Shown here piece by piece: positions 1 to 12,768 of a stretch of 64,000 bases of DNA; the stretch's first letter is position 1, and the number at the start of each line of letters is the position of its first letter. Source of the DNA: Peptococcia bacterium (GTDB lineage Bacteria; Bacillota; Peptococcia; DRI-13; DTU073); the NCBI GenBank assembly GCA_050951565.1, contig JBMNJH010000012.1:63141-127140 (forward strand), in the 5' to 3' direction. Both the position numbers and the translations under genes were made by a program. The notes below the pieces were generated by a model. It saw nothing but the letters and a program-made list of their open reading frames with translations. It had not been told where the DNA came from and did not search any database.

Positions 1-1
1 A

Positions 2-823
2 GCTCCCAAAGAGCAAGTAGCAGAAAGTATGGAGGAAAACTACGGGGAATATGTTGCGCCCGCTTTGCTTGAACAATGGAAGCAAGACCCGCAAAAGGCC
101 CCGGGCAGGCTTACTTCCAGCCCTTGGCCGGATCAGATCGAAATATTGAACATGAACAAAGTTTCGGAGGAAGCCTATCATGTAAAAGGTGAAATTATCG
201 AGGTTACCAATGTGGAAAAAGAAAGCGGGGAAGTTGCCGCGAAAAGAGAAATTAATCTCACCGTGGTAAAAATCGATGAACGGTGGTTCATTAACAGCGT
301 TGAACTGGGAGATTACGTGGAGGGCGACGGTGCCCTCAATAACGGTACTGATAACGATAGCGCTGCCGCTAATACTAATACTAATACTAATGGTAATGCT
401 AATGCTAATACCGGAAGCAAGCTCTCCCTGGTGTATAAAAACGAGCAATATGGGTTCAGTTTTGCTCTGCCCGAGAGTTGGAAAAACTACAAGATTATCA
501 CTGAGGAATGGGAGGGGAGATGGTTAGAAGACGCTCCCGAGGGTAAAAATGTGGAGAAAGGTCCGCTGATTTCCATTCGCCATCCTCTTTGGACAGAAAA
601 AAACCCGCGGCAGGATATCCCCATGCTCATTCTTACGCATCAGCAATGGAACTCTGTGCAGCAGGAAATACTCGCGATCGGAGCGGCGCCTGTTCCGCCA
701 TCTAAATTAGGCAGTAATGACAAGTACGTTTTTGCCTTGCCCGCCCGTTATAACTACGCTTTTCCCGAAGGATTCGAAGAAGTGGAGGACATTTTAGCCA
801 GCAATCCCCTGCAAACGAACTAA
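2..823 (+). CDS. hypothetical protein, probably 5'-partial, with an Asn/Thr-rich low-complexity linker
   Basis: The frame is open from nt 2 with no upstream stop, so the ATG at 29 may be internal. It has a globular C-terminal part and an NTNTNTNGNANANTG linker. No recognisable family. Confidence 0.5.
   Translation, partial: APKEQVAESMEENYGEYVAPALLEQWKQDPQKAPGRLTSSPWPDQIEILNMNKVSEEAYHVKGEIIEVTNVEKESGEVAAKREINLTVVKIDERWFINSVELGDYVEGDGALNNGTDNDSAAANTNTNTNGNANANTGSKLSLVYKNEQYGFSFALPESWKNYKIITEEWEGRWLEDAPEGKNVEKGPLISIRHPLWTEKNPRQDIPMLILTHQQWNSVQQEILAIGAAPVPPSKLGSNDKYVFALPARYNYAFPEGFEEVEDILASNPLQTN
371..412 (+). repeat. imperfect hexanucleotide microsatellite (aatact/aatgct/aatggt) encoding the (N-T/A/G)n linker
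   Basis: Read directly: aatactaatactaatactaatggtaatgctaatgctaatacc. Confidence 0.8.
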
Positions 824-919
824 TTGATAATTTTAGACCTGCTGAGGTAAAGTGACATAAGTAAGTCGCATAAGCATAAAAGCGCAGCGATGGTCCAAAA
901 TATATGGTAAGGATACAAA

Positions 920-947
920 GGCAGTAATATCGCAAGGTATTACTGCC
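920..947 (+). terminator. candidate hairpin downstream of the first CDS (10-bp perfect stem, 8-nt loop)
   Basis: ggcagtaata-tcgcaagg-tattactgcc. The T-run (ggttttttt) starts about 20 nt later, so this is not a textbook intrinsic terminator. Confidence 0.3.
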
Positions 948-1022
948 CAAACTATTTAAAAGAGGTTTTTTTGCAGGAGAATTACCGAAGAAAAATTCCA
1001 GAAGAAGGAGAATGATTGCTTG

Positions 1023-2723
1023 ATGGCGGAAAATGTTTTGGAAAGAACCGAAGGGCGGGTCAGTTATCATGATTCGGTGGAAGCGATGCTGAAAAGAATC
1101 AAAGAGGATGGGCTTTCCAGCGTCTTTTCCAGGTGGCCGGTCCAGGAAAAGCTGCGGTGTAGTTTTTGCTTGCAGGGTCTGAGCTGCCAGTTATGCACCC
1201 ATGGGCCTTGCCGGATCAGCGATAAGGTGGCGGGCGCGGACAAAGGGGTGTGCGGTATTGGGCCTGATGCCATGGCTATGCGGAATTTGCTCATGCGTAA
1301 TATTATGGGCGCCGCAACCTATGCCCATCATGCTTTTGAAGCCTTTCGCACCTTGAAAGCCACCGGAGAAGGAAAAACTCCTTTTACCATCGGCGATGTG
1401 GGCAAACTGAAATGGATGTGTGAAAAGGTGGGCATCGACCCCAATCAGGAGACGAAGCAACTGGCGATTCAATTGGCGGAATTGCTGGATCGGGAATTAA
1501 AAATCAATCCGGACCAGGAAAGCATCATGCTGGAGGCCTTTGCCCCGAAGAAGCGCAAAGTTTTGTGGCGGGAGAAGGAGCTTTATCCTTCCGGGGTACA
1601 GCATGAGGTGGAAAACAGTATTGCCAGTTGCCTTACCAATGTGGACGGGGACTTTGTGTCCCTGGCCCGAAAAGCCCTGCGTTTGGGGATCGCAACCATT
1701 TATACGGCTCAAATCGGCCTGGAAATGGTGCAGGATATTCTTTTTGGGACTCCCATGCCCCACCAGGTCGATGTTGACCTGGGCATTATGGATCCTGATT
1801 ATGTCAACATCGTTTTCAATGGACATCAACCCTGGATTGGGGTGGCCACCCTGCAAAAAGTGCGGCAGCCCGCCTACCAGGAGCGGGCCCAAAAGGCAGG
1901 AGCCAAGGGGATCCATATTGTTGGTTCCATCGAAACAGGACAGGAGTTAGTTCAAAGATTCCCGGTGGACGACGTTTTTGTGGGTTTGATGGGAAACTGG
2001 CTATCGCTCGAACCACTTTTGGCCACCGGCGCGGTGGATGCCTTAGTGATGGAAGAAAACTGTTCGCCGCCGGCGATTGACCAGTATGCGGAAAAATACC
2101 AGTTTGCTTTGTTCTACCGGGAACTGGGCGTGGAATTAAACACGATTAAAGCCTTGCTCACGTCTCCCTCTTTTGATAAGACCGCCGCTTTGCGTGAACA
2201 CCATGCCAAACTCCTGGCGAAAAAGGCGCGTCTGGAACTATTGATTGCCAACGTGGAAAAATCCATTGCGGCGGCGGAGGGGAGGATTAGGATGTCGGAC
2301 CAGGAGAAGTTTGAGGGCTTTAAGAAAAAATTGCTGGAAGAAAACGAAGCCCAATACGGGCGGGAGAGTAGAGAAAAGTACGGGGAAGAAGCGGTTCGCC
2401 GGTCCAACCAAAAGTTCATGGAGATGACCGAAGAGCAATATGCCAAACTCCAGGAATTGACCGAGCGGCTCAATGATACCTTAAAGCAGGCCATGGTCAC
2501 CGGCGATCCGGCCGGAGACTTGGCCCAAAAGGCTTGTGCACTGCACAAAGAATGGTTGCTTTACTTTTGGCCGAAGTATTCAAAAGAAGCGCATTGGGGG
2601 CTGGCTCAAATGTACGTGGATGGCCCTCGTTTTACCGCCTACTATGACCAGATTGCTCCGGGTTGTGCCGTGTTTTTACGCGATGCCCTGCGGATTTATA
2701 CGGGAGCAAAGGGAGGAGAATAA
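1023..2723 (+). CDS. chimeric ORF: N-terminal ~360 aa of a CooS-type Ni-CO dehydrogenase homologue fused in frame to the C-terminal part of a MerR/TipA-type regulator (dimerisation helix plus TipAS domain). Likely a deletion remnant or pseudogene
   Basis: The N-terminus has the CooS-like Cys cluster CSFCLQGLSCQLCTHGPCRI..VCG and ILFGTP..NGHQP. From 'FALFYRELGVELN' onward it matches the MerR wing and coiled coil, then a TipAS-like domain (MSDQEKFEGF...YVDGPRFTAYYD). The track starts at TTG 1020; ATG 1023 is preferred. Confidence 0.7.
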   Translation: MAENVLERTEGRVSYHDSVEAMLKRIKEDGLSSVFSRWPVQEKLRCSFCLQGLSCQLCTHGPCRISDKVAGADKGVCGIGPDAMAMRNLLMRNIMGAATYAHHAFEAFRTLKATGEGKTPFTIGDVGKLKWMCEKVGIDPNQETKQLAIQLAELLDRELKINPDQESIMLEAFAPKKRKVLWREKELYPSGVQHEVENSIASCLTNVDGDFVSLARKALRLGIATIYTAQIGLEMVQDILFGTPMPHQVDVDLGIMDPDYVNIVFNGHQPWIGVATLQKVRQPAYQERAQKAGAKGIHIVGSIETGQELVQRFPVDDVFVGLMGNWLSLEPLLATGAVDALVMEENCSPPAIDQYAEKYQFALFYRELGVELNTIKALLTSPSFDKTAALREHHAKLLAKKARLELLIANVEKSIAAAEGRIRMSDQEKFEGFKKKLLEENEAQYGRESREKYGEEAVRRSNQKFMEMTEEQYAKLQELTERLNDTLKQAMVTGDPAGDLAQKACALHKEWLLYFWPKYSKEAHWGLAQMYVDGPRFTAYYDQIAPGCAVFLRDALRIYTGAKGGE

Positions 2724-2905
2724 GCCGGCTCATCCCGGATCAAGCAGTCGGAAAAGTAATGACGCTCTGCACTTTGACTGTTACCCTTTCCAACGGTCAA
2801 TTTTAGTGCATCGGGGCCCGAAATCAGTTATAATAATATTTGTTGTATTGCCAACAACTCGAGTAATTAAGTCGAGTGCTTCAGTGAAAGGTAGGGCTCC
2901 TGGTT

Positions 2906-3646
2906 ATGAATACCCGCAAAACCGCCATTATCACCGGCGCATCCCGGGGGATTGGCCGGAAAACCGCCGAGCTATTTGCCCTTAACGGATACAATGTGCT
3001 GATTAATTTCCGCCATTCGCAGCAGGCGGCGGAACAACTCCAAAAGGAATTAAGACAAGCCGGGGCCAAGGTGGAAATTTTCCGGGCCGATGTGGGAAAT
3101 TATGATGAGGCCCGGGCGATGGTGGATTTTTGTTTGGACCGTTTTGGCGCGGTGGACGTTTTGGTCAACAACGCGGCCATCAGCCAGAGCAAATTGTTTA
3201 CCGAGCTGACGCCGGCCGAATGGCAGGAAATGATGAGGGTGATTTTGAACGGGGTTTTCAACTGCACCCAGCATGCTTTAAAGCACATGCTGCGGGAGAA
3301 TCGGGGGAAGATTATCAACCTGTCTTCGATTTGGGGGATTGCCGGAGCGTCTTGTGAAGTGCATTATTCAACGGCCAAGGCGGGTATCATCGGCTTTACC
3401 AAGGCTTTAGCCAAAGAGATGGGCCCTTCCAATATTCAGGTAAATTGTGTGGCCCCCGGCGTAATCGAGACGGATATGCTCAATGAGTATACGGAGGAGG
3501 ATTTGGAGGCGCTGCGGCAGGAGACCCTGGTGAAGCGACTGGGCAGCCCCCAGGACATTGCGCAGGTGATTTTGTTTCTGGCTTCGGAAAAGGCGGACTA
3601 TATTACCGGCCAGGTAATCAGCCCCGACGGAGGCTTTTTGCTCTAA
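2906..3646 (+). CDS. short-chain dehydrogenase/reductase, FabG-like 3-oxoacyl-ACP reductase family
   Basis: TGASRGIG cofactor motif, NNAA, and the S...YSTAK catalytic motif. 246 aa. Confidence 0.85.
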   Translation: MNTRKTAIITGASRGIGRKTAELFALNGYNVLINFRHSQQAAEQLQKELRQAGAKVEIFRADVGNYDEARAMVDFCLDRFGAVDVLVNNAAISQSKLFTELTPAEWQEMMRVILNGVFNCTQHALKHMLRENRGKIINLSSIWGIAGASCEVHYSTAKAGIIGFTKALAKEMGPSNIQVNCVAPGVIETDMLNEYTEEDLEALRQETLVKRLGSPQDIAQVILFLASEKADYITGQVISPDGGFLL

Positions 3647-3736
3647 GGTGGAAAAGGGAAAGCGAAAAGTAAAAAAGTGACCGGGAATAGGAAGTAGAGA
3701 AAAGAGAGCAGGAAAAAGAAAGAAGTGGGAGAGGGA

Positions 3737-5365
3737 ATGGAAAGTAGAAACGCAAAGGAAGAAAAAATAAACAAACCGGTGCGAGTACGGTTTGCGCCTA
3801 GTCCTACCGGCTATTTGCATATTGGCGGGGCACGGACGGCTTTGTTCAACTGGCTTTTTGCCCGGCAAAACCAGGGAACCTTTGTCTTGCGGATTGAAGA
3901 TACGGATACGGAACGATTAAAAGAAGATTCGGTGGCGCAGATCCTGAACAGCCTCCGTTGGCTGGGTCTGGACTGGGACGAAGGGCCGGATGTGGGCGGA
4001 GCTTACGGGCCATATTACCAGTCGGAGCGGCAAAGCTTCTACCAGGCCGCCGCTGCCGCTTTGTTAAAAGAGGGAAAAGCCTATTACTGTTTTTGCAGCG
4101 AGGAAGAATTGGCTAAGGAGCGGGAAAAACAACGCCAGGCGGGACAAACCATTCGTTACAGCGGGAAATGTCGCCACTTATCGGATCAAGAGGTACAGGA
4201 AGGTCTGGCCCGGGGCGATAAACCGGTGGTGCGGATTAAGCTGCCGGAAAAAGGCGCCATTGTCGTGCAGGATTTAATCCGGGGCGCGGTGACTTTCCAA
4301 TTTGAACAGTTGGATGATTTTATTATCATGAAATCCAATGGCTTGCCGGCCTATAACTTTGCTTGTGTGGTGGATGACCATACCATGGCCATCAGTCATG
4401 TCATCCGGGCGGAAGAACACCTGTCCAATACACCCAAGCAGCAATTCCTTTATGAGGCTTTGGGTTATCCGGTGCCCCAATTTGCCCATCTTTCCATGAT
4501 CCTGGCGCCGGACCGCAGTAAACTGAGCAAGCGGCACGGGGCCACCAGTGTCAGCGAATTCCGGGAGATGGGCTGCCTGCCGGAAGCCATCGTCAATTAC
4601 TTAACGCTGCTGGGTTGGTCGCCCAGTGAAGAGGAAGGCGAAATCCTGACTCCGGAGCAGACCCTGCGGTCGTTCTCCCTGGAGAAGGTCTCGAAGACGG
4701 CGGCCATCTATGATACGCAGAAATTAATCTGGTTAAATGGCCAGTATCTGATGAACTACGCGCCGGAGAAGCTGTTGCCGCAAGCGTTACCCTATTTGCT
4801 GGAGACCGGTTTGGTGGCCGACCCAAAGGAAGCGGAGCAAAAACAGGCCTTGCTGGTGGCGGTGCTGGCCGCTTTTCAGGGAAGAGTAAAAACCTTAGCG
4901 GAGTTGCCGGAAGCCTGCCGGTATTTCTTTACCGATGTTGGTTCCTACGACGAAAAAGGGCAACAGAAGTATTTCTTTAAGCAAAGCGCCGGTTCCGGCG
5001 CAGGTGCGGGTTCCGGTGGTGCAGATGGTGGTTCGGGTGCAGTCACCAGTACCGGCTCAACTGCAAATGCCGGCTACGATGTGGCGGACTTATTAAGGAA
5101 AGGGCGGGATTGCCTGGCTGAGCTGACGGAATTTACCGTGGAAAGAACAGAAAAAGCCTATCGTGATTTGATTGAAAAACTCCAAATCAAATCCGGTCAG
5201 TTAATTCATCCGACCAGGCTCGCTCTGACGGGGCGGACGGCCAGTCCCGGCTTGTTTGAAGTAATGGCCTTATTAGGTAAAGAAAAGTGCCTGGAGCGTT
5301 TGGAGCAGGCGATTGAATACATTGAATACATTAGAGAGCATAAGAACGAGGAAGAGGGAGATTAG
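3737..5365 (+). CDS. gltX: glutamate--tRNA ligase
   Basis: RFAPSPTGYLHIGGARTALFNW (HIGH) and KLSKRHG (KMSKS). ATG 3737 follows gggagaggga; the track starts at GTG 3725. Contains a Gly/Ser/Ala-rich insertion. Confidence 0.93.
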   Translation: MESRNAKEEKINKPVRVRFAPSPTGYLHIGGARTALFNWLFARQNQGTFVLRIEDTDTERLKEDSVAQILNSLRWLGLDWDEGPDVGGAYGPYYQSERQSFYQAAAAALLKEGKAYYCFCSEEELAKEREKQRQAGQTIRYSGKCRHLSDQEVQEGLARGDKPVVRIKLPEKGAIVVQDLIRGAVTFQFEQLDDFIIMKSNGLPAYNFACVVDDHTMAISHVIRAEEHLSNTPKQQFLYEALGYPVPQFAHLSMILAPDRSKLSKRHGATSVSEFREMGCLPEAIVNYLTLLGWSPSEEEGEILTPEQTLRSFSLEKVSKTAAIYDTQKLIWLNGQYLMNYAPEKLLPQALPYLLETGLVADPKEAEQKQALLVAVLAAFQGRVKTLAELPEACRYFFTDVGSYDEKGQQKYFFKQSAGSGAGAGSGGADGGSGAVTSTGSTANAGYDVADLLRKGRDCLAELTEFTVERTEKAYRDLIEKLQIKSGQLIHPTRLALTGRTASPGLFEVMALLGKEKCLERLEQAIEYIEYIREHKNEEEGD

Positions 5366-5467
5366 GCAACCTAGCCCACGAAAAACCGACCTATGATTGA
5401 TAATAACGCGTAATTTCTTCTTGCATTTCGTTGCTTCTACCTGTATAATTAACTTTGTTTCTTTTGT

Positions 5468-5544
5468 GGCCCCATGGTCAAGAGGCCTAAGACGCCGCCC
5501 TCTCACGGCGGAAACAGGGGTTCGAATCCCCTTGGGGCCACCAC
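5468..5544 (+). tRNA. tRNA-Glu (anticodon CTC), with encoded CCA
   Basis: Acceptor GGCCCCA/TGGGGCC. Anticodon arm CCGCC-CTCTCAC-GGCGG. T-arm AGGGG-TTCGAAT-CCCCT. Folded by hand. Confidence 0.85.
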
Positions 5545-5566
5545 CAAAATGAAATCGTGTAATATT

Positions 5567-5604
5567 AAAACCCGCTTTTTTGTTAAAGCGGGTTTTATTG
5601 TTTT
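5567..5604. terminator. bidirectional intrinsic terminator between tRNA-Glu and the convergent lipoprotein gene
   Basis: aaacccgcttt-tttgtt-aaagcgggttt, flanked by an A-run and a T-run. Confidence 0.6.
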
Positions 5605-5687
5605 GGCTGATGACCTTTGGATGCTTTTTCGACTAAAAAGTGAAGTTATTGTCGCAGGAATAATTCGTTGCGCCAGTTTGGCAGCAG

Positions 5688-6467
5688 TTAGTTGTCGACG
5701 GGTTTGCCGGTTCGGCCGGCGATTAACCGATTTTCCCCGGTCTCGAGATTGTATTGATAAACCGCTTCATTGGTGCTATAAGACTCGTCGCTTAACACCC
5801 AGTCTTTTTTGATGTATTCGATGGTCTGCTCGTCAATCCATTTATTGGCCAGGTAATCAGTGCCATCTGTGCCACTGAATAATACTGTGCTTTTTTTCGT
5901 GTGAAGATCATAAAGCACCAGGTCGAAAATATTGGGATCAATCGTAATGGTGTTTTTGATTTCCGATTGATTCTCGTTAAGACCGGTGTAGATTAATTGA
6001 TTTCCTTCCGGGGAAAAGAAAAGGGTTTCATAGTAATCGAAGCTGTCAACAAAGGCTGCATCGGCGGTAAATAAGTGACCAAGCCTGATCACATAGGTGC
6101 CTGAATCGGCGAAGATGTATTTACTGTTGGGTGACCATACTAATTCAGCGACATGAAACAATTCGCGTTCCGACTGGATCGGAGAACTTTCCCCTACAGG
6201 CCATATATGAAGGAAAACCGGTTTGTCGAATTCTTCTTCGGTTTGGCCTTTGAGATAGGCAATATATTTTTTATCGGTTGATTGGGTAATAAAAGTAACA
6301 TCGTCTTGGGCTCTGAGCTGTTGGATAATATACTCCACGGAGAATTGCTCCGTAGCGTTGTTGGCCGTGCCGTTATTGGCGGCCTCGTTGTTTGCGCCAA
6401 AACATCCGCTTAACCCTAAGACCAGGGTCATGAAAAAACAAAGTAAAACGATTCTTTTCAAGTTCAA
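5688..6467 (-). CDS. lipoprotein with PD40/TolB-like beta-propeller-type repeats, function unknown
   Basis: Lipobox LSGC after a hydrophobic signal, an Asn-rich linker, and motifs WSPNSKYIF and FSPEGNQLIY. Confidence 0.6.
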   Translation of the reverse strand: MNLKRIVLLCFFMTLVLGLSGCFGANNEAANNGTANNATEQFSVEYIIQQLRAQDDVTFITQSTDKKYIAYLKGQTEEEFDKPVFLHIWPVGESSPIQSERELFHVAELVWSPNSKYIFADSGTYVIRLGHLFTADAAFVDSFDYYETLFFSPEGNQLIYTGLNENQSEIKNTITIDPNIFDLVLYDLHTKKSTVLFSGTDGTDYLANKWIDEQTIEYIKKDWVLSDESYSTNEAVYQYNLETGENRLIAGRTGKPVDN

Positions 6468-6600
6468 TTCCCCCCTAATCTCCAGATTCTCAAAATCAAT
6501 CGGTAGTAGTGATTTTTAAATCTCTTACCACCCCCGCCTTAAATTCTTGTGGATTATCAGTTAAAGGAATAAGTTCTTCATTCCTTTCATTTTTCCTTTT

Positions 6601-8631
6601 CTATTGACCCAGACCAAGGAGCAGGCCTCCCTGGTAGACCAGGAAAGCCACGAACCAGGCCAGGGCAAAGGTGTAAAGAACCGCAAAAATTGTCCATTTC
6701 CAGGAGCCGGTTTCCGCCTTAATCGCGCCAATCGTTCCCGCACAAGGGATATAGATTAAAGTCATCACCATGAAACTGTACGCGCTTAAGGGTGTCCAAT
6801 GCAAGGCCAGTACGGCCGACAGGCTTTCTTGCCCCGTACCGTAAAGAACGCCGAGGGTGCTGACCACCACTTCTTTGGCGACGACCCCGAAGAGCAGCGC
6901 CGAGGCCGCTTCTCTCGTCCCAAAACCAAGGGGAGCAAAAAGCGGAGCCAGCAGGGAACCTAATTTACCCATGAAACTATCCGGACTGGCATATTCTACC
7001 CCCCAGGGGAAATAGGCGAGAGCCCAGGCAATCATCACGACACTAAAGATTACCGTCCCTACTTTTCTAAAGAAAGCGACGCTTTTTCTTTCGATTTGAA
7101 TGAAGGTATCTTTTAAGGTCGGCAGGCGGTAGGGAGGCAACTCAATTAAGAGGGGCGAAGTCTCCCCGGGGAAGAAAAACCGAGCAAAAATTTTGGCCAT
7201 GATAACTGCAAGGAGAATCCCCAACAGGTAAAGGGAAAACATTACCACTGCCTGGTATGCTTTGAAAAATGCGCCTACAAACAGGGCATATACGGGCAGC
7301 CGCGCCCCGCAGGACATCAGCGGGAGAATTAAAATGGTAATCAGGCGGTCCCGGGGATTTCTCAGGGTCCTGGCCGCCAAAATGGCCGGAACATTGCAGC
7401 CAAAGCCCATCACCAGCGGGATAATGGCTTTTCCCTCCAAGCCAAGATAGCGCATATAGCGATCCATCAAAAAGGCCCCGCGGGCCATATAGCCACTGTT
7501 TTCCAACAGGGAAATCGCCAGGAACAAACAAATAATCACCGGCAGGAAAATAATAATGCTTCCTAACCCGCCGATTATTCCTTCGACCACAAAAGAAGCC
7601 AGTAAATCGTGGGTAATCAGCCCAGACAATTGATTTCCCAGGAAAGCAAAAATATCTTCTAACAAGCTAACAAGGGGACTGCTTAAGGTGAAGGTAATTT
7701 TAAAAACCACCAGAATCGCTAGAAAAAAGAGGGGCAATCCGATGTATTTATTGAGGACGATACGGTCGATTTTATCGGAAAGGGTATAAGTGCCCGCCAG
7801 GTCGGGGCTGTCCACCACCTGTTGCAGGACTGTGTTGATGTATTGATATCTTTTCTCGATAAACATTGCCGCAAGGTTTTCACCATAGATTTTTTTAAGC
7901 CGGTTCATGCTTTGCTTCCGGAAAGCCAGCAGGTTGTGGAAAATCTTTTCACACAGTTCGGCCTTCATCTGCATCGTCTTGAGGAAATTCTCGCCTTCTT
8001 CCAACAGTTTCAGCGCCAGAAAGCGCAAGGGATAGGAAGAAGGGGTGAGGCCCATCGTGAGGATGGCTTCTTCCAGGGTCCTGATTTCCGCTTCAATTTC
8101 CGGGCCGTAATCAAGGGAAAAACCATGTTCCGGCGGGGCTTGTTCGGCGGTGGCCACGCGCACCAGGTCCCCAAGCCCCATTTTTGTTCTGGCGATGGTG
8201 GGGACAATCGGCACTTTGAGCAGATAAGACAGTTTCGTGACGTTGATCTTGATCGCGTTTTTTTCGATCTCGTCCATCATGTTTAAAGCGACGATGACCG
8301 GGACGCCCATTTCCAGCAGTTGCACCGTCAAGTAAAGGTTCCGCTGCAGGTTGGTGGCATCCAGCACGTTGATGACGGCATGGGGTTTTTCCAGCAGCAG
8401 ATAATTGCGCGCTACCAGTTCGTCTTCCGACTGGGAGCCCATGCTGTAAATGCCCGGCAAATCAATGATGGTAACGTGGGGATGATTGATCAGGGGACCT
8501 TCTTTTTTTTCAATCGTAACCCCCGGCCAATTGCCGACTTTTTGCTTGGCCCCGGTTAAATTATTAAACAAAGAGGTTTTTCCTGTATTGGGATTTCCGA
8601 TTAAGGCAATCGTTTTTTCTGTCGTGGTCAT
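6601..8631 (-). CDS. feoB: ferrous iron transporter FeoB
   Basis: N-terminal G-domain IALIGNPNTGKTSLFN followed by a polytopic membrane domain. 676 aa. Confidence 0.95.
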   Translation of the reverse strand: MTTTEKTIALIGNPNTGKTSLFNNLTGAKQKVGNWPGVTIEKKEGPLINHPHVTIIDLPGIYSMGSQSEDELVARNYLLLEKPHAVINVLDATNLQRNLYLTVQLLEMGVPVIVALNMMDEIEKNAIKINVTKLSYLLKVPIVPTIARTKMGLGDLVRVATAEQAPPEHGFSLDYGPEIEAEIRTLEEAILTMGLTPSSYPLRFLALKLLEEGENFLKTMQMKAELCEKIFHNLLAFRKQSMNRLKKIYGENLAAMFIEKRYQYINTVLQQVVDSPDLAGTYTLSDKIDRIVLNKYIGLPLFFLAILVVFKITFTLSSPLVSLLEDIFAFLGNQLSGLITHDLLASFVVEGIIGGLGSIIIFLPVIICLFLAISLLENSGYMARGAFLMDRYMRYLGLEGKAIIPLVMGFGCNVPAILAARTLRNPRDRLITILILPLMSCGARLPVYALFVGAFFKAYQAVVMFSLYLLGILLAVIMAKIFARFFFPGETSPLLIELPPYRLPTLKDTFIQIERKSVAFFRKVGTVIFSVVMIAWALAYFPWGVEYASPDSFMGKLGSLLAPLFAPLGFGTREAASALLFGVVAKEVVVSTLGVLYGTGQESLSAVLALHWTPLSAYSFMVMTLIYIPCAGTIGAIKAETGSWKWTIFAVLYTFALAWFVAFLVYQGGLLLGLGQ

Positions 8632-8703
8632 TGTTTCTTCTCCTTAGGGTAATGTATCGTAGTGATGAAAGTTGTTGCGCGTTGAACGAAGAAAATACAG
8701 GGT

Positions 8704-8943
8704 TTAGCCGGCCTTTTCCACGAGAATTTTGCTGGCCATTTGACGGCCCAGGGCGATTCGGCTGCTGGAGAGGGCAATCAGCACCGGACCCCATCCGTCA
8801 TTACGCACGATGTTGATTTGGGTGCCGCGGTTAAGCCCCATTTCATTGAGTCTTCTTTTTAAGCTGCTTCCGCCGGCGATTTCTTTGATGATGACCTTTT
8901 CGCCAGGTCGCATTGTAATTAAGGATTGTTGTTTTTCGCTCAT
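8704..8943 (-). CDS. feoA: FeoA-family iron transport protein
   Basis: 79 aa with an SH3-like FeoA pattern (GEKVIIKEI..RRLNEMGL..G), located directly upstream of feoB. Confidence 0.85.
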   Translation of the reverse strand: MSEKQQSLITMRPGEKVIIKEIAGGSSLKRRLNEMGLNRGTQINIVRNDGWGPVLIALSSSRIALGRQMASKILVEKAG

Positions 8944-9025
8944 TTTACGTCACCTCAGTTTTGTGTGGATGTTAAAGCAGAGTAGTGATGAATCGAACAA
9001 GGATGATTTAGTGACAATAAAAAGC

Positions 9026-9463
9026 TTACAGATCGGACTTAAGTAATTCGGCAGCTTTTTTAAGGTCAAGGTCGCTGCTGATTTGGTAGTTGCCTTTTTC
9101 CAGAAAAGCAATCATACCGGCAATGGTTTGGGGACTAATGACATGTTCGATTAAGCAGGCATCTTTGTTGGCGATATCGGCATCTACTTGCAATACGGTC
9201 ACCAGGAATTCGCGGATGATTTTGTGCATCTTTTTCACTTTTAACGCGGCCAGTTCGCCTTTTTTGGTCAGCGAAACAGGGCCGTATTTTTCTTTCAGCA
9301 CCATTTTTTCATTAATCAAAGTATCAATGGCTTGGGTTGCGCTTGCTTTGGTAATATTAAGAGCGTTGGCGATATCCGTAATGCGCGTGGAATGATTGTT
9401 TTCCGATAGTTGAAGAATTACCTCCAGATAGTCCTGGGTCGAGGGTGTAAGTGCTTTACTCAT
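9026..9463 (-). CDS. DtxR/MntR-family metal-dependent transcriptional repressor (no SH3-like C-domain)
   Basis: Has QDYLEVI, a winged HTH (ITDIANALNITKASATQAI) and a metal-site/dimerisation region. First gene of the dtxR-feoA-feoB string. Confidence 0.85.
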   Translation of the reverse strand: MSKALTPSTQDYLEVILQLSENNHSTRITDIANALNITKASATQAIDTLINEKMVLKEKYGPVSLTKKGELAALKVKKMHKIIREFLVTVLQVDADIANKDACLIEHVISPQTIAGMIAFLEKGNYQISSDLDLKKAAELLKSDL

Positions 9464-9488
9464 CTCGGGCTCACTTCCCTTTAGTAAA

Positions 9489-9508
9489 AAATGTTAGGCT
9501 TACCTAAC
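9489..9508. promoter_or_regulatory. candidate DtxR/IdeR-type operator in the promoter region of the dtxR-feoAB operon
   Basis: aaatgttagGCTTACCTAAc. The right half matches CTWACCTWA 9/9 and the left half partly. The core palindrome is gttagg-ctta-cctaac. Confidence 0.5.
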
Positions 9509-9632
9509 TTATTTATAACCTATTTTTTGTCCCTCGTCAATAGTGAAAAAAGTTGTCGCCGTGAAACAAGGAAAGGATGGCATTTTGGCCCCGCATATGT
9601 TATATTTTGGTTGGAATGAGGAGGAATGGCAA

Positions 9633-10256
9633 TTGAAAAAGTTAATCATGACGTTTTTGTGTGGGATGTTTATATTTGCCGCCTGTACCGGCCAGGTTTG
9701 GGGAGCCGAAATTACCGTTTATCTTAACGGAAAACAAGTGGAATTTCCCGAGCAAAAACCGATCATCGTCGAGGATAGGACCATGGTTCCATTTCGGGTA
9801 ATCGCTGAACATCCCGATGTGCAAGGAGAAGTAAGTTGGAACGGCGAAGACCGTAGTGTGACCATTATCGATCGTTCCGGCAAAAGGGTAATCTTCGGGC
9901 TCGACACGGCAACCTACCGGATTATCGAGGGTCCAGGCAGTGACAATGAGGACAATGATCTTAACGACAATAACGGGGAAAAAGAAAAGGCCGGGGACAG
10001 TGTAGAGAGCACAGAGAATACAGACCGGGCGGACAGGAGCGTGGTGAAGGAAAACGATGTGGCTCCGGTGGTGTTGGAGAACCGGCAAATCATGTTGCCC
10101 CTGCGCGCTTTTGCGGAAGCATTTGATTTTGAAGTGAATTGGGATGGAACAACGAGGAGTGTAAGCATCACGGAAAAAGAAGGGTATACGCGACTTCTTT
10201 TGTCACCGGAGGAATGGGTAGCCCGGTTGAACAAGAATAAGGATGAACCCTTGTGA
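9633..10256 (+). CDS. secreted copper-amine-oxidase N-terminal-domain ('stalk' domain) protein, paralogue 1
   Basis: Two copies of the LNGK..F....P......MVP.R..AE / LPLRA.AE..DF.V.WD pattern. TTG 9633 lies 7 nt after gaggagga and gives the signal peptide MKKLIMTFLCGMFIFAACTGQVWG. The track starts at GTG 9543. Confidence 0.75.
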   Translation: MKKLIMTFLCGMFIFAACTGQVWGAEITVYLNGKQVEFPEQKPIIVEDRTMVPFRVIAEHPDVQGEVSWNGEDRSVTIIDRSGKRVIFGLDTATYRIIEGPGSDNEDNDLNDNNGEKEKAGDSVESTENTDRADRSVVKENDVAPVVLENRQIMLPLRAFAEAFDFEVNWDGTTRSVSITEKEGYTRLLLSPEEWVARLNKNKDEPL

Positions 10257-10436
10257 GGACCATGGGGGTGCCGGTAAGGTTTACCGGCGGGACCGAAAGC
10301 GTATGTAGGTGTATCCTTAATGTAAAATCGTTCCTTGTTTTTATTTGGTGCATAGTGTAAAATTGTGATAAGAAAAAGATAAAAAAAGTGTAAAAAACAT
10401 TGGGTTTTGTAAGTAATATTAAGGAGGAAAACACCC

Positions 10437-11240
10437 ATGAAAAAAATCACAATTTTATTGTTACTTGCATTTATTTTGACAATGCTGGGAACAGTGGTAG
10501 CATGGGGTGCGAGTACGAGAGACAAGATTGCGGATTATACTGTTCAGTATAGGTATCTAAATGGCATAAGTTCAGCTTTAACTTATGATATTTACGAAGA
10601 GCCCGGTCGTTCGAATGATGAGGTAATTGAAAGTACCTTAAAAAAAGTTCGGGCATCGAATAATAAAGATATTTTCCGGATTACCCATGTGAATGACAAA
10701 GAGATCAGTCGTACCAAATGGGCGAAATATGGGGGAGTCATTAATAGCCGATTCAAAAATGATCCTGCAGGGGTCAAGGCCGCGTCGAAGCCGCCCACAA
10801 CGTCCACTAAAGAGGTAAGGGTGTTTATCAATGGCAAACAGGTTACTTTCCCAGACCAGAAGCCCATTATTATTCAGGGACGCACGATGGTTCCCATGCG
10901 GGCGGTTTTTGAACATCCAGATGTGCAGGCACAAGTAGTATGGAATGAGAAAAACCGCACCGTAACCGCTACGGACCGTTCCGACAAGACGATTGTCTTT
11001 AAGATTGGCGACAACTATTACACGGTGAAAACCGGTTCCAAAGAAGAAAAGAAATACTCCGATGTGGCACCTCGCATCCAAAGCGGCCGAACCCTGTTGC
11101 CCTTGCGGGCTTTGTCCGAGTCCCTTGATTTTGAAGTGAACTGGATTGACAACGAGCGGAAAGTCGACATCAAGGAAAAACCGGGGAACAAACGTAAACT
11201 ACTGCCAGCGGAGGAATGGGAAAAAATCCTGAAAAAATAA
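10437..11240 (+). CDS. secreted copper-amine-oxidase N-terminal-domain protein, paralogue 2
   Basis: aaggagg RBS, a signal peptide, and a C-terminal half that by eye is highly similar to the 12960..13799 product. Confidence 0.8.
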   Translation: MKKITILLLLAFILTMLGTVVAWGASTRDKIADYTVQYRYLNGISSALTYDIYEEPGRSNDEVIESTLKKVRASNNKDIFRITHVNDKEISRTKWAKYGGVINSRFKNDPAGVKAASKPPTTSTKEVRVFINGKQVTFPDQKPIIIQGRTMVPMRAVFEHPDVQAQVVWNEKNRTVTATDRSDKTIVFKIGDNYYTVKTGSKEEKKYSDVAPRIQSGRTLLPLRALSESLDFEVNWIDNERKVDIKEKPGNKRKLLPAEEWEKILKK

Positions 11241-11267
11241 ACCCGTAAAGATTAATAGCGCACGATT

Positions 11268-11297
11268 AAAACCGGCAGAGCACCTGCCGGTTTTATT
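11268..11297. terminator. bidirectional intrinsic terminator
   Basis: aaaaccggcag-agcac-ctgccggtttt, followed by tatt. Confidence 0.7.
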
Positions 11298-11346
11298 ATG
11301 CGCACCAAACCATTTCTGAGGATTAAATTGGGAGGATGAAAAAGAT

Positions 11347-12768
11347 TCATGGCAGAACGGGCGGGAGGCCGTCGATTAATTGATTGATCGTTACCGGATA
11401 AATGTTTTTTTGCGCAGCAAAGCTGATTAACTCATCGCTGAAACCGTTTTTGGAAAAAAGATAATAATATACTCTGGCGGTATTGTTGCTTGGTTTAAAC
11501 TTGGCAAGAAGAGTATTTAAATCTTTCAAGTTAAAGGGGGCATTTTTGAATTTGCATTCACCGATGAGAAAATGGTTTTTCTCCTTATCGGTGGCCATGA
11601 TGTCTAGCTCGTCCGTCTTGTCCCACCAGCGCCCAATTTTGGTAAAGCGGAAAGGTAGTCTTTCTTGCCTGTTGAGCTTTCTTAAATATTCTCGGCAAAT
11701 CAGTTCAAAGCTCCTCGAGGTAAATTGGTTTAAAGAAGGTTTTACAACCTGATGAAAAACGCCATCTATGTCCCCTGTTTCCAGTTCTGATATACAGGGG
11801 AAAACGAAAGCGTACCAAAAACGGAAGAAGTTGTCGGTAATTTGATACAGCCCTCTTTGAAAGCTCGCTTGTTTCTTAATGCTTTCGGAAACGGGAACCT
11901 CTCGCTCGATAATCCCTAAATCGATCAGGTTTTTTAAATATACCGTCAGCTTATTTTTGTCAATTTGGGTTTTTTGATAGATTTCATTAAGTTTGGTATT
12001 ACCTAAAGCGATTGCTTCAATAATCGTGTTGTAGATGGTGGTTTCCCGTAATTCTTGCCTTATTAAGAATTCTATTTCGGAATAGAGGATACTACCTTTT
12101 TGAAGGATGTTTGCTTTGATGTTTTTCTCCAGTGATTGATTATGATCAAATTGTTTTAAATAGTGGGGGATACCTCCCAGGATGGCATAGGCATATATTT
12201 TCTCCAGATGAGGGTATTTGGGGAAGAATTGAATAGCGTCATAAAAGTCCATTTTGCTCATTTTTAAGATGCCGGTTGCTCTGCCGTAAAGGGGATTTTT
12301 TTCCGCTAATACTTCTTTTTCGATAAAAGACATGGCACTGCCGCAAAGAATGATCATTACATTTTCTGCTTTGAGTTTTTCATCCCATAGTTTTTGTAAT
12401 AGAGAAGGGATAGAGCGATTATTTTTGATCATGTAGGGAAACTCATCGATAATCAGTAGTTTTTTTCCTTCTGAAGGCAATTCGGATACACAGGCAAAAG
12501 CCTGTTCCCAGTCGGCAAACTCGCGCAAGTATTTGGCTGCAGGAACATTCTTTTTAAGCATTCTCGCACTGAAGTCTTTAAGCTGTTTTTCATTCGTACT
12601 TTCGGTACAGGTATAAAAGACATGGTCTTTTCCTTCGCAAAACTTACGCAGGGTTTCAGTCTTTCCGATACGGCGACGACCGTATACCACAATGAGTTGA
12701 CCGCCTTTACTACGGTATTTATCTTCTAAGAATTGCAGTTCGTTTTTTCTGCCGATAAACATCCGCAA
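11347..12768 (-). CDS. AAA-type ATPase of the archaeal-ATPase/DUF234 family
   Basis: Walker A GRRRIGKT, Walker B LLIIDEFPY, and a C-terminal winged-helix plus DUF234-like tail. 473 aa. Confidence 0.75.
   Translation of the reverse strand: MRMFIGRKNELQFLEDKYRSKGGQLIVVYGRRRIGKTETLRKFCEGKDHVFYTCTESTNEKQLKDFSARMLKKNVPAAKYLREFADWEQAFACVSELPSEGKKLLIIDEFPYMIKNNRSIPSLLQKLWDEKLKAENVMIILCGSAMSFIEKEVLAEKNPLYGRATGILKMSKMDFYDAIQFFPKYPHLEKIYAYAILGGIPHYLKQFDHNQSLEKNIKANILQKGSILYSEIEFLIRQELRETTIYNTIIEAIALGNTKLNEIYQKTQIDKNKLTVYLKNLIDLGIIEREVPVSESIKKQASFQRGLYQITDNFFRFWYAFVFPCISELETGDIDGVFHQVVKPSLNQFTSRSFELICREYLRKLNRQERLPFRFTKIGRWWDKTDELDIMATDKEKNHFLIGECKFKNAPFNLKDLNTLLAKFKPSNNTARVYYYLFSKNGFSDELISFAAQKNIYPVTINQLIDGLPPVLP

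Follow-up and report, generated by a model that had tools for sequence, protein, structure and literature searches.

In-frame fusion of a CODH-V-type gene to a merR/tipA gene in an uncultured Peptococcaceae lineage: a probable deletion pseudogene with a TipAS-like cistron

The open reading frame (ORF) at positions 1023 to 2723 of a 64,000-nt stretch of contig JBMNJH010000012.1, hereafter the window, encodes a chimera in which residues 1–363 of a CooS-family protein (CO dehydrogenase, CODH) are followed in frame by residues 54–254 of a TipA-class MerR regulator. The fusion very probably goes back to a single genomic deletion of ~1.07 kb, which joined a cooS gene of the CODH-V type (cooS-V) to a merR/tipA gene in one uncultured Peptococcaceae lineage and left a pseudogene whose TipAS cistron can probably still be translated. 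The initial annotation of this DNA had proposed a deletion joining two neighbouring genes in frame, and this proposal is sustained by the finding of both genes intact in the closest relative, by a sister allele that is identical in nucleotide sequence up to the junction, and by the restriction of the fusion to one species.

The ORF lies on the forward strand, with TTG 1020 or ATG 1023 as possible starts and a stop codon at 2721–2723; residue numbers of the chimera are counted here from ATG 1023. Pfam and NCBIfam profile searches, run on the 566-residue chimera, reveal truncation on both sides of the junction. The Pfam Prismane/CO-dehydrogenase family covers residues 54–365 with only profile positions 2–301 of 513 (E = 1.8e-73), and NCBIfam TIGR01702 (CO_DH_cata) aligns to residues 14–365 with positions 1–349 of 621, its 440 bits falling below the curated threshold of 478. 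On the other side, MerR-DNA-bind matches residues 360–409 (positions 5–60 of 65) at 21.6 bits, under its cut-off of 25.4, and the Pfam search gave no match in the chimera to the MerR helix-turn-helix (HTH) families PF13411 and PF00376. The TipAS family (PF07739) is complete, with positions 1–117 of 117 aligned to residues 445–559 (E = 1.2e-35, 123 bits). The two halves thus fit the earlier description of a CooS N terminus fused in frame to a MerR/TipA protein without its HTH; indeed, the alignment begins at residue 54 of the regulator of the closest relative. In public annotation, the ORF appears as “TipAS antibiotic-recognition domain-containing protein” in some records and as “hydroxylamine reductase (hybrid-cluster protein)” in others.

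Both parents can be traced. An intact 637-residue CooS-family protein (P0002), which matches the first 64% of the query without a difference, is encoded on contig L001, which on sequence grounds is from the same species as the window. Window positions 1–2111 match L001 8979–11089 at 100% identity, and positions 2304–12000 match L001 11958–21654 at 99.9% (BLAST). Since the first match ends at 2111, the cooS part ends at this nucleotide, and F364, which begins at nt 2112, opens the other parent. In the closest relative species, represented by the Peptococcia metagenome-assembled genome (MAG) GCA_050951585.1 and seven other contigs, the corresponding protein (P0003) has 638 residues and is 93% identical over the matched part and ~90% over the whole cooS product. 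On all eight contigs of this relative, the 638-residue cooS, an 80-nt spacer and a full merR/tipA gene of 254 codons lie in this order on the same strand, which is the arrangement that the initial annotation had suggested looking for in syntenic loci. The relative’s regulator carries the Pfam domains MerR, MerR_1, MerR-DNA-bind and TipAS; F364 of the chimera aligns with its F54, and M424 with its M114. Upstream of the relative’s merR/tipA lies a promoter of the form TTGACA-19 nt-TATGAT (11943–11973 of the relative’s contig L007), with an imperfect palindrome within its spacer. An over-long spacing of 19 nt between the −35 and −10 elements is typical of MerR-controlled (MerR-activated) promoters. 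This merR-type promoter is deleted from the window.

We took the breakpoints from BLAST coordinates and from direct reading of the sequences; a three-way MAFFT DNA alignment placed the window segment wrongly and was not used for this purpose. The join falls at L363|F364, nt 2111|2112, where the sequence reads TACCAGTTTGCTTTG|TTCTACCGGGAACTG. The switch itself had been recognised in the initial annotation, which put it at YAEKYQ|FALFYRELG around nt 2100; the true join is three residues further downstream, and “FAL” belongs to cooS. The window lacks cooS codons 364–637, which span 825 nt in L001, together with the promoter-bearing spacer and codons 1–53 of merR/tipA; the loss amounts to ~1.07 kb when the unseen stretch is sized from the relative. 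The four nucleotides TTTG at the junction are common to cooS (GCTTTG|ATT; longer, CAGTTTGCTTTG|ATT) and to the relative’s merR (ATTTTG|TTT; longer, CAGATTTTG|TTT). Such a shared tetranucleotide would be the usual mark of an illegitimate, slippage-type deletion.

The fusion, which we call allele A, is not peculiar to one contig. The top match in the protein search (P0001) is a near-identical 567-residue chimera standing for a cluster of 40 members, and an identical junction is present in the window and 13 further contigs, that is, in 14 independent assemblies. The junction contigs were produced with SPAdes (ERZ778036) and MEGAHIT (ERZ27257420, ERZ27257457), or come from Logan assemblies of five runs, from JGI (3300061563, 3300058954, 3300053716) and from NCBI MAGs (GCA_029780605.1, GCA_033809475.1, GCA_035409205.1). 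The samples and assemblers differ, and the 14 copies all belong to one species, with >99.6% nucleotide identity. Because the junction is identical across these assemblies, and because a 4-nt repeat cannot mislead an assembler, the deletion is genomic and not an assembler product. The copies differ from one another at 12 single-nucleotide polymorphism (SNP) sites, half synonymous and half non-synonymous, and also in the number of units of a hexanucleotide repeat close by; these differences indicate that allele A has been in circulation for some time. The repeat, an in-frame (AATACT)n encoding Asn-Thr at window ~366–395 within the ORF 29..823, occurs in two to four copies, plus one interrupted longer variant, among same-species assemblies, and the products of this upstream gene range from 350 to 356 residues. 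When the locus was looked up through the neighbouring SDR gene, nine of the ten places listed held allele A, one held a second deletion allele (allele B, below) and none an intact pair of genes. The fusion is the commonly assembled allele of the species.

Allele B occurs in three same-species contigs, L001 (ERZ27280797), L153 (JGI 3300060680) and L152 (Logan SRR16013976), in which cooS is intact. After the cooS stop codon, the sequence (L001 11915–11960 and the equivalent positions of L152 and L153) runs ...AAGCTCTTGACATTGACGTA|GAGAAGTTTGAGG, so that merR/tipA codon 118 directly follows the −35 box plus 10 nt of promoter spacer. This allele lacks ~390 nt, and with them the HTH, the coiled coil, and the internal Shine-Dalgarno (SD) sequence and ATG 2292 that are described below. 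Allele A retains merR codons 54–117, which are gone in allele B; allele B retains the 3′ half of cooS and the promoter stump, which are gone in allele A. Since the retained parts are complementary, the two alleles descend independently from an intact ancestor, and the locus offers a clean record of two deletion alleles segregating in an uncultured species. The remnant left in allele B is a start-less TipAS reading frame, which gene callers report as 130 residues from a TTG. The end of one MEGAHIT contig, L002 from ERZ27280794, coincides precisely with the allele-B junction, at the equivalent of L001 11957. A third allele, possibly intact, may exist in the ERZ27280794 sample, because a branch in the assembly graph would end L002 at this point. 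On the allele-B contig L153, the upstream HGSNAT_cat/acyltransferase gene (2179–2964) is called as 57 + 180 residues and not as 261, which may reflect another pseudogenisation or a sequencing error.

Outside this species, no fusion was seen in the genomes surveyed. We surveyed a genome contig collection in which 80 other species have a close homologue of the CODH-V-type protein (~75–90% amino acid identity over the whole protein); the homologue stands alone in all of them and measures ~636–638 residues wherever the contig holds the whole gene, giving 0 fusions in 80 species. Among the species surveyed, only the closest relative has merR/tipA adjoining the cooS homologue, and among the matches listed in two protein searches only the P0001 cluster combines Prismane with TipAS. 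Orthologous fusions across many genomes, which the initial annotation had named as the observation that would speak for a genuine domain architecture, were thus not seen, and a conserved fusion architecture is rejected: all fusions are copies of one recent event.

The N-terminal parent is, by homology, a CODH-V or clade D protein and not a canonical Ni-CODH. Against the structures of Carboxydothermus hydrogenoformans (Ch) CODH-V (PDB 7b7q, 7b7t, 7b95, 7b97 and 7b9a), the intact allele scores 824 bits, with residues 12–636 aligned to 4–629, and the next best CODH structure reaches 442 bits. In ChCODH-II, the ligands of the C-cluster are H261, C295, C333, C446, C476 and C526. This canonical set is incomplete in the chimera, which has Glu at position 295 and has lost the equivalents of 446, 476 and 526 (VSCST, GGCGN and GTCTD, residues 454–530 of the intact allele), all three beyond the breakpoint. 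Canonical CODHs have a conserved cysteine at position 295, in place of which CODH-V has Glu295 (PMC10502027). CODH-V contains an interfacial [2Fe-2S] cluster and an Fe-S-O hybrid-type cluster and has neither a C-cluster nor CO-dehydrogenase activity (PMC10502027); it is placed in clade D, without CO/CO2 interconversion (bioRxiv 10.1101/2025.09.14.676152). The initial annotation had correctly read SIETG where ICCTG would be expected, but its reading of this change as a lesion does not hold. SIETG was considered as a decay mutation and rejected: it is the Glu295 hallmark of CODH-V and is shared by the intact allele.

The remaining features of this half agree with the same assignment. The N-terminal cysteine motif of the TIGR01702 type for the B- and D-clusters is present, with the spacing C46-x2-C49-x5-C55-x2-C58-x4-C63-x13-C77 and the same cysteines in 7b7q; the motif had been noticed before, with an x6 interval that is in fact x5. 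GHQP, also noticed before, is found as NGHQP and includes H268. The intact parent resembles Ch CODH-V, to which it aligns end to end, sharing His259, Glu295 (GSIE[ST]G) and the CxxC motif of the interfacial cluster. In contrast, the window copy has the His259 and Glu295 equivalents but stops at residue 363 of 637 and so falls short of the complete polypeptide of ~630–640 residues; without the three C-terminal cluster-ligand cysteines it would not be a working member of the class. The estimate that about 55% of CooS was kept, with the remaining ligands absent, was close to the 57% (363/637) that we count. The truncated fragment would presumably be unable to build the active-site cluster.

The C-terminal 203 residues align with SkgA (7cla) from its residue 62 and with the Listeria MerR-like protein 3qao from residue 55 (77 bits each), and with Streptomyces lividans TipAS (2mbz, 1ny9) at ~50 bits. 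Two products come from the tipA gene of S. lividans: the long regulator, TipAL, and the effector domain by itself, TipAS, which is initiated at a second start in the same frame, is produced in excess and sequesters thiopeptides (PMC7762955, PMC11098121). The chimera shares with TipAL/TipAS, SkgA, 3qao and Klebsiella oxytoca AlbA/AlbAS a coiled coil and an effector domain of the TipAS type, complete in the chimera, and with TipAL/TipAS also an in-frame internal start at the boundary between the two. Unlike TipA-class regulators, it has no helix-turn-helix, no promoter of its own with the 19-nt spacer and no equivalent of Cys105. In S. lividans TipAS, Cys105 is the thiostrepton-reactive, or thiopeptide-reactive, cysteine (PMC11098121). 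The aligned residue of the chimera is Gly526 (~2598–2600), with Gly also in SkgA and Ser in 3qao. Because Cys105 is replaced by Gly, covalent thiopeptide binding by the TipAS domain of the window appears unlikely.

The internal start was followed through 52 distinct homologous genes from metagenomes and the closest relative (loci L095–L151 and L007; ~30–78% amino acid identity). In the window, gaggggagg at 2277–2285 precedes ATG 2292, which opens MSDQEKFEGF. At the aligned position, 51 of the 52 homologues have ATG and one has TTG, and an SD-like purine 4-mer lies 5–17 nt upstream of this codon in 50 of 52, compared with 38 of 213 other internal Met codons (Fisher p = 3e-27). Furthermore, of 56 codons for the Gly inside the SD motif, 52 are GGA or GGG, compared with 300 of 663 Gly codons elsewhere in these genes (p = 5e-13). 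Both p-values overstate the case, since the homologues are not phylogenetically independent, but the pattern is still clear. The Gly-codon bias points to selection on the nucleotides and not on the protein alone. These observations suggest that the pairing of a long with a short isoform, known from Streptomyces TipA and Klebsiella AlbA, is a general trait of the family. The view of the initial annotation that a TipAS-type unit with its own start and SD sequence has been retained is in line with this conservation, and a 143-residue TipAS-like product from ATG 2292 is plausible, with an in-frame start and ribosome binding site placed, as expected for the short isoform, between coiled coil and effector domain. 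The equation of ATG 2292 with the Streptomyces start is right as to the domain boundary but not as to the exact column, the Met of the window lying four residues downstream of the Met1 column of S. lividans TipAS.

Since the regulator’s own promoter is deleted, any expression of TipAS must come from the promoter of cooS-V. A scan for sigma-70-like promoters gave four sites in the region, with 1.8 expected; the only one upstream of the ORF (Table 1) is a weak match and a candidate for the promoter from which the entire chimeric transcript would now be made.

We propose the following course of events. The ancestor would have carried, on one strand, cooS-V, a short spacer with a MerR-type promoter, and merR/tipA. 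A deletion would then have removed the 3′ part of cooS-V from codon 364 onward, the spacer with the promoter and the first 53 codons of merR/tipA, the ends being joined at the TTTG microhomology and, presumably by chance, in frame. The enzyme would be dead through the loss of three of the six active-site cluster ligand positions together with the C-terminal part, and the regulator through the loss of the HTH and of the autoregulated promoter, so that, as had been claimed from the sequence, neither a functional CODH nor a DNA-binding regulator should be made. The 143-residue TipAS-like cistron would keep its SD sequence and ATG and would probably be translated, only from transcripts of the cooS-V promoter. 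The locus resembles other fusion pseudogenes formed by microhomology deletion in having a breakpoint within each gene, a 4-nt shared join, intact parents and a narrow distribution, and differs from them in having a second, independent deletion allele.

Some points weigh against this account. An intact cooS plus merR/tipA allele was not found in the species: a protein search with the C-terminal half gave, as its best match, a protein of 78% identity from the relative species; a scan of a metagenome contig collection for exact 30-mers gave no intact same-species merR/tipA; and a protein-guided scan of metagenome contigs gave only relatives of <=65% identity, in a collection without the window species. 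The genome contig collection, too, returned the closest relative (93% over the matched first 364 residues) and not the window species. The ancestral state is thus pieced together from the relative and allele B, and the microhomology is read from the relative’s merR, not from the true ancestor. We infer both the loss of function and the translation of TipAS. None of the 14 copies has an interrupted ORF, an observation that, at such low divergence, says little either way.

Other explanations were weighed against a deletion pseudogene. A chimeric contig, merging reads of cooS and of merR/tipA, might be suspected in a window that derives from metagenome-type data and in a species several of whose contigs break near the locus. 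This is excluded for practical purposes: one junction is shared by 14 assemblies from different samples and assemblers, and a microhomology of 4 nt is far below any assembly k-mer. It is also very improbable that the 566-residue chimera is itself functional, for example as an Fe-S dimer made of the B-/D-cluster domain, the coiled coil and the TipAS ligand-binding domain, although its ORF is open in every copy and contains two cluster motifs with all their cysteines, along with a dimerisation helix and an entire TipAS domain. In the alignment with the solved CODHs, the breakpoint cuts through a conserved part of the core, AEKYQFAL|ISVS, rather than through a linker; the fused form is limited to a single species of nearly identical sequences, in which the 6 synonymous and 6 non-synonymous sites are too few to show constraint. 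Furthermore, an in-frame outcome is expected in one of three random deletions.

A different possibility is that the loss of the MerR head was selected, a TipAS-only protein under the cooS-V promoter taking the place of ligand-induced autoregulation. The MerR head is lost in each of the two independent deletions of this species, the intact allele was not seen, and allele A, which occupies most of the places listed, keeps the conserved SD sequence and ATG. However, allele B has lost the SD sequence and the ATG and therefore does not preserve TipAS; selection cannot be demonstrated from only two events; and the deletion in allele A also destroys cooS-V, which elsewhere is conserved at ~80% amino acid identity across genera. 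We therefore consider such adaptive rewiring improbable. The associated idea, that MerR-head loss was favoured twice and that the common allele turns an antibiotic-inducible TipAL/TipAS system into TipAS-only expression from the promoter of a stress-type CODH-V gene, is likewise unlikely; if true, it would be a case in which a deletion has rewired regulation in nature. Under the preferred explanation, a deletion pseudogene, the chimera is the product of an ordinary inactivating lesion and not a new architecture. The ORF should accordingly be flagged as a fusion pseudogene in annotation, and this locus should not be taken as grounds for assigning a CO dehydrogenase or a CODH-V to the organism. 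The features of the locus are collected in Table 1.

Table 1. Positions of the features of the fusion locus, in window coordinates
Feature	Position	Strand	Basis
Candidate promoter, TTGATA-18-TAAAGT	824..853	+	Only sigma-70-like match upstream of the ORF
Chimeric ORF, 566 aa (567 aa if TTG 1020 is the start), stop codon included	1023..2723	+	ORF list, domain matches, identical ORF in 14 assemblies
cooS-V-derived segment, codons 1-363 of a 637-aa protein of CODH-V type (clade D)	1023..2111	+	100% nt identity to L001 10001-11089; TIGR01702 1-349 of 621
Fe-S Cys motif: C46-x2-C49 (interfacial D-cluster CxxC, as in CODH-V and Dv CODH) and C55, C58, C63, C77 (B-cluster)	1158..1253	+	Sequence, 7b7q alignment; clusters assigned by homology
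His268 codon (NGHQP), equivalent to His259 of Ch CODH-V	1824..1826	+	7b7q alignment, numbering of PMC10502027
Glu304 codon (SIETG), equivalent to Glu295 of Ch CODH-V; Cys295 position of canonical Ni-CODHs	1932..1934	+	Aligned to GSIESG (7b7q) and MCCTG (6t7j)
Deletion junction with 4-nt microhomology TTTG, join 2111|2112	2108..2111	+	BLAST breakpoints and sequence reading; identical in 14 assemblies
merR/tipA remnant, codons 54-113: end of DNA-binding domain (FYRELG...) and dimerisation coiled coil; HTH codons 1-53 gone	2112..2291	+	Alignment to relative, SkgA and 3qao
Shine-Dalgarno-like GGAGGGGAGG, 6 nt ahead of ATG 2292	2276..2285	+	Sequence; SD-like motif in 50/52 homologues
Putative internal TipAS-like cistron, 143 aa (MSDQEKFEGF...), same frame as chimera	2292..2723	+	Pfam TipAS, homologue ATG, TipAS structures 2mbz/1ny9
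Right-hand breakpoint of allele B: intact cooS and promoter stump (CTCTTGACATTGACGTA) joined to GAGAAG...	2304	+	L001, L152, L153
TipAS Pfam domain	2355-2699	+	Pfam

The surroundings of the two genes also differ between the species. In the closest relative, ~4.3 kb (L007 12901–17260) lie between merR/tipA and the SDR gene, comprising an ADP-ribosylglycohydrolase gene, small ORFs, DUF1538 and P-II; the window species has none of these (window 2724–2905). The gene order upstream (PALP, Oxidored_FMN) is likewise different in the relative and the window species. The ~4.3-kb difference and the changed upstream order suggest a neighbourhood prone to rearrangement. Rfam and tRNA scans gave nothing within the 1023–2723 interval. 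The only Rfam/tRNA match in the window is a tRNA-Glu(CTC) at 5468–5543, directly downstream of a glutamyl-tRNA synthetase gene (3725–5365).

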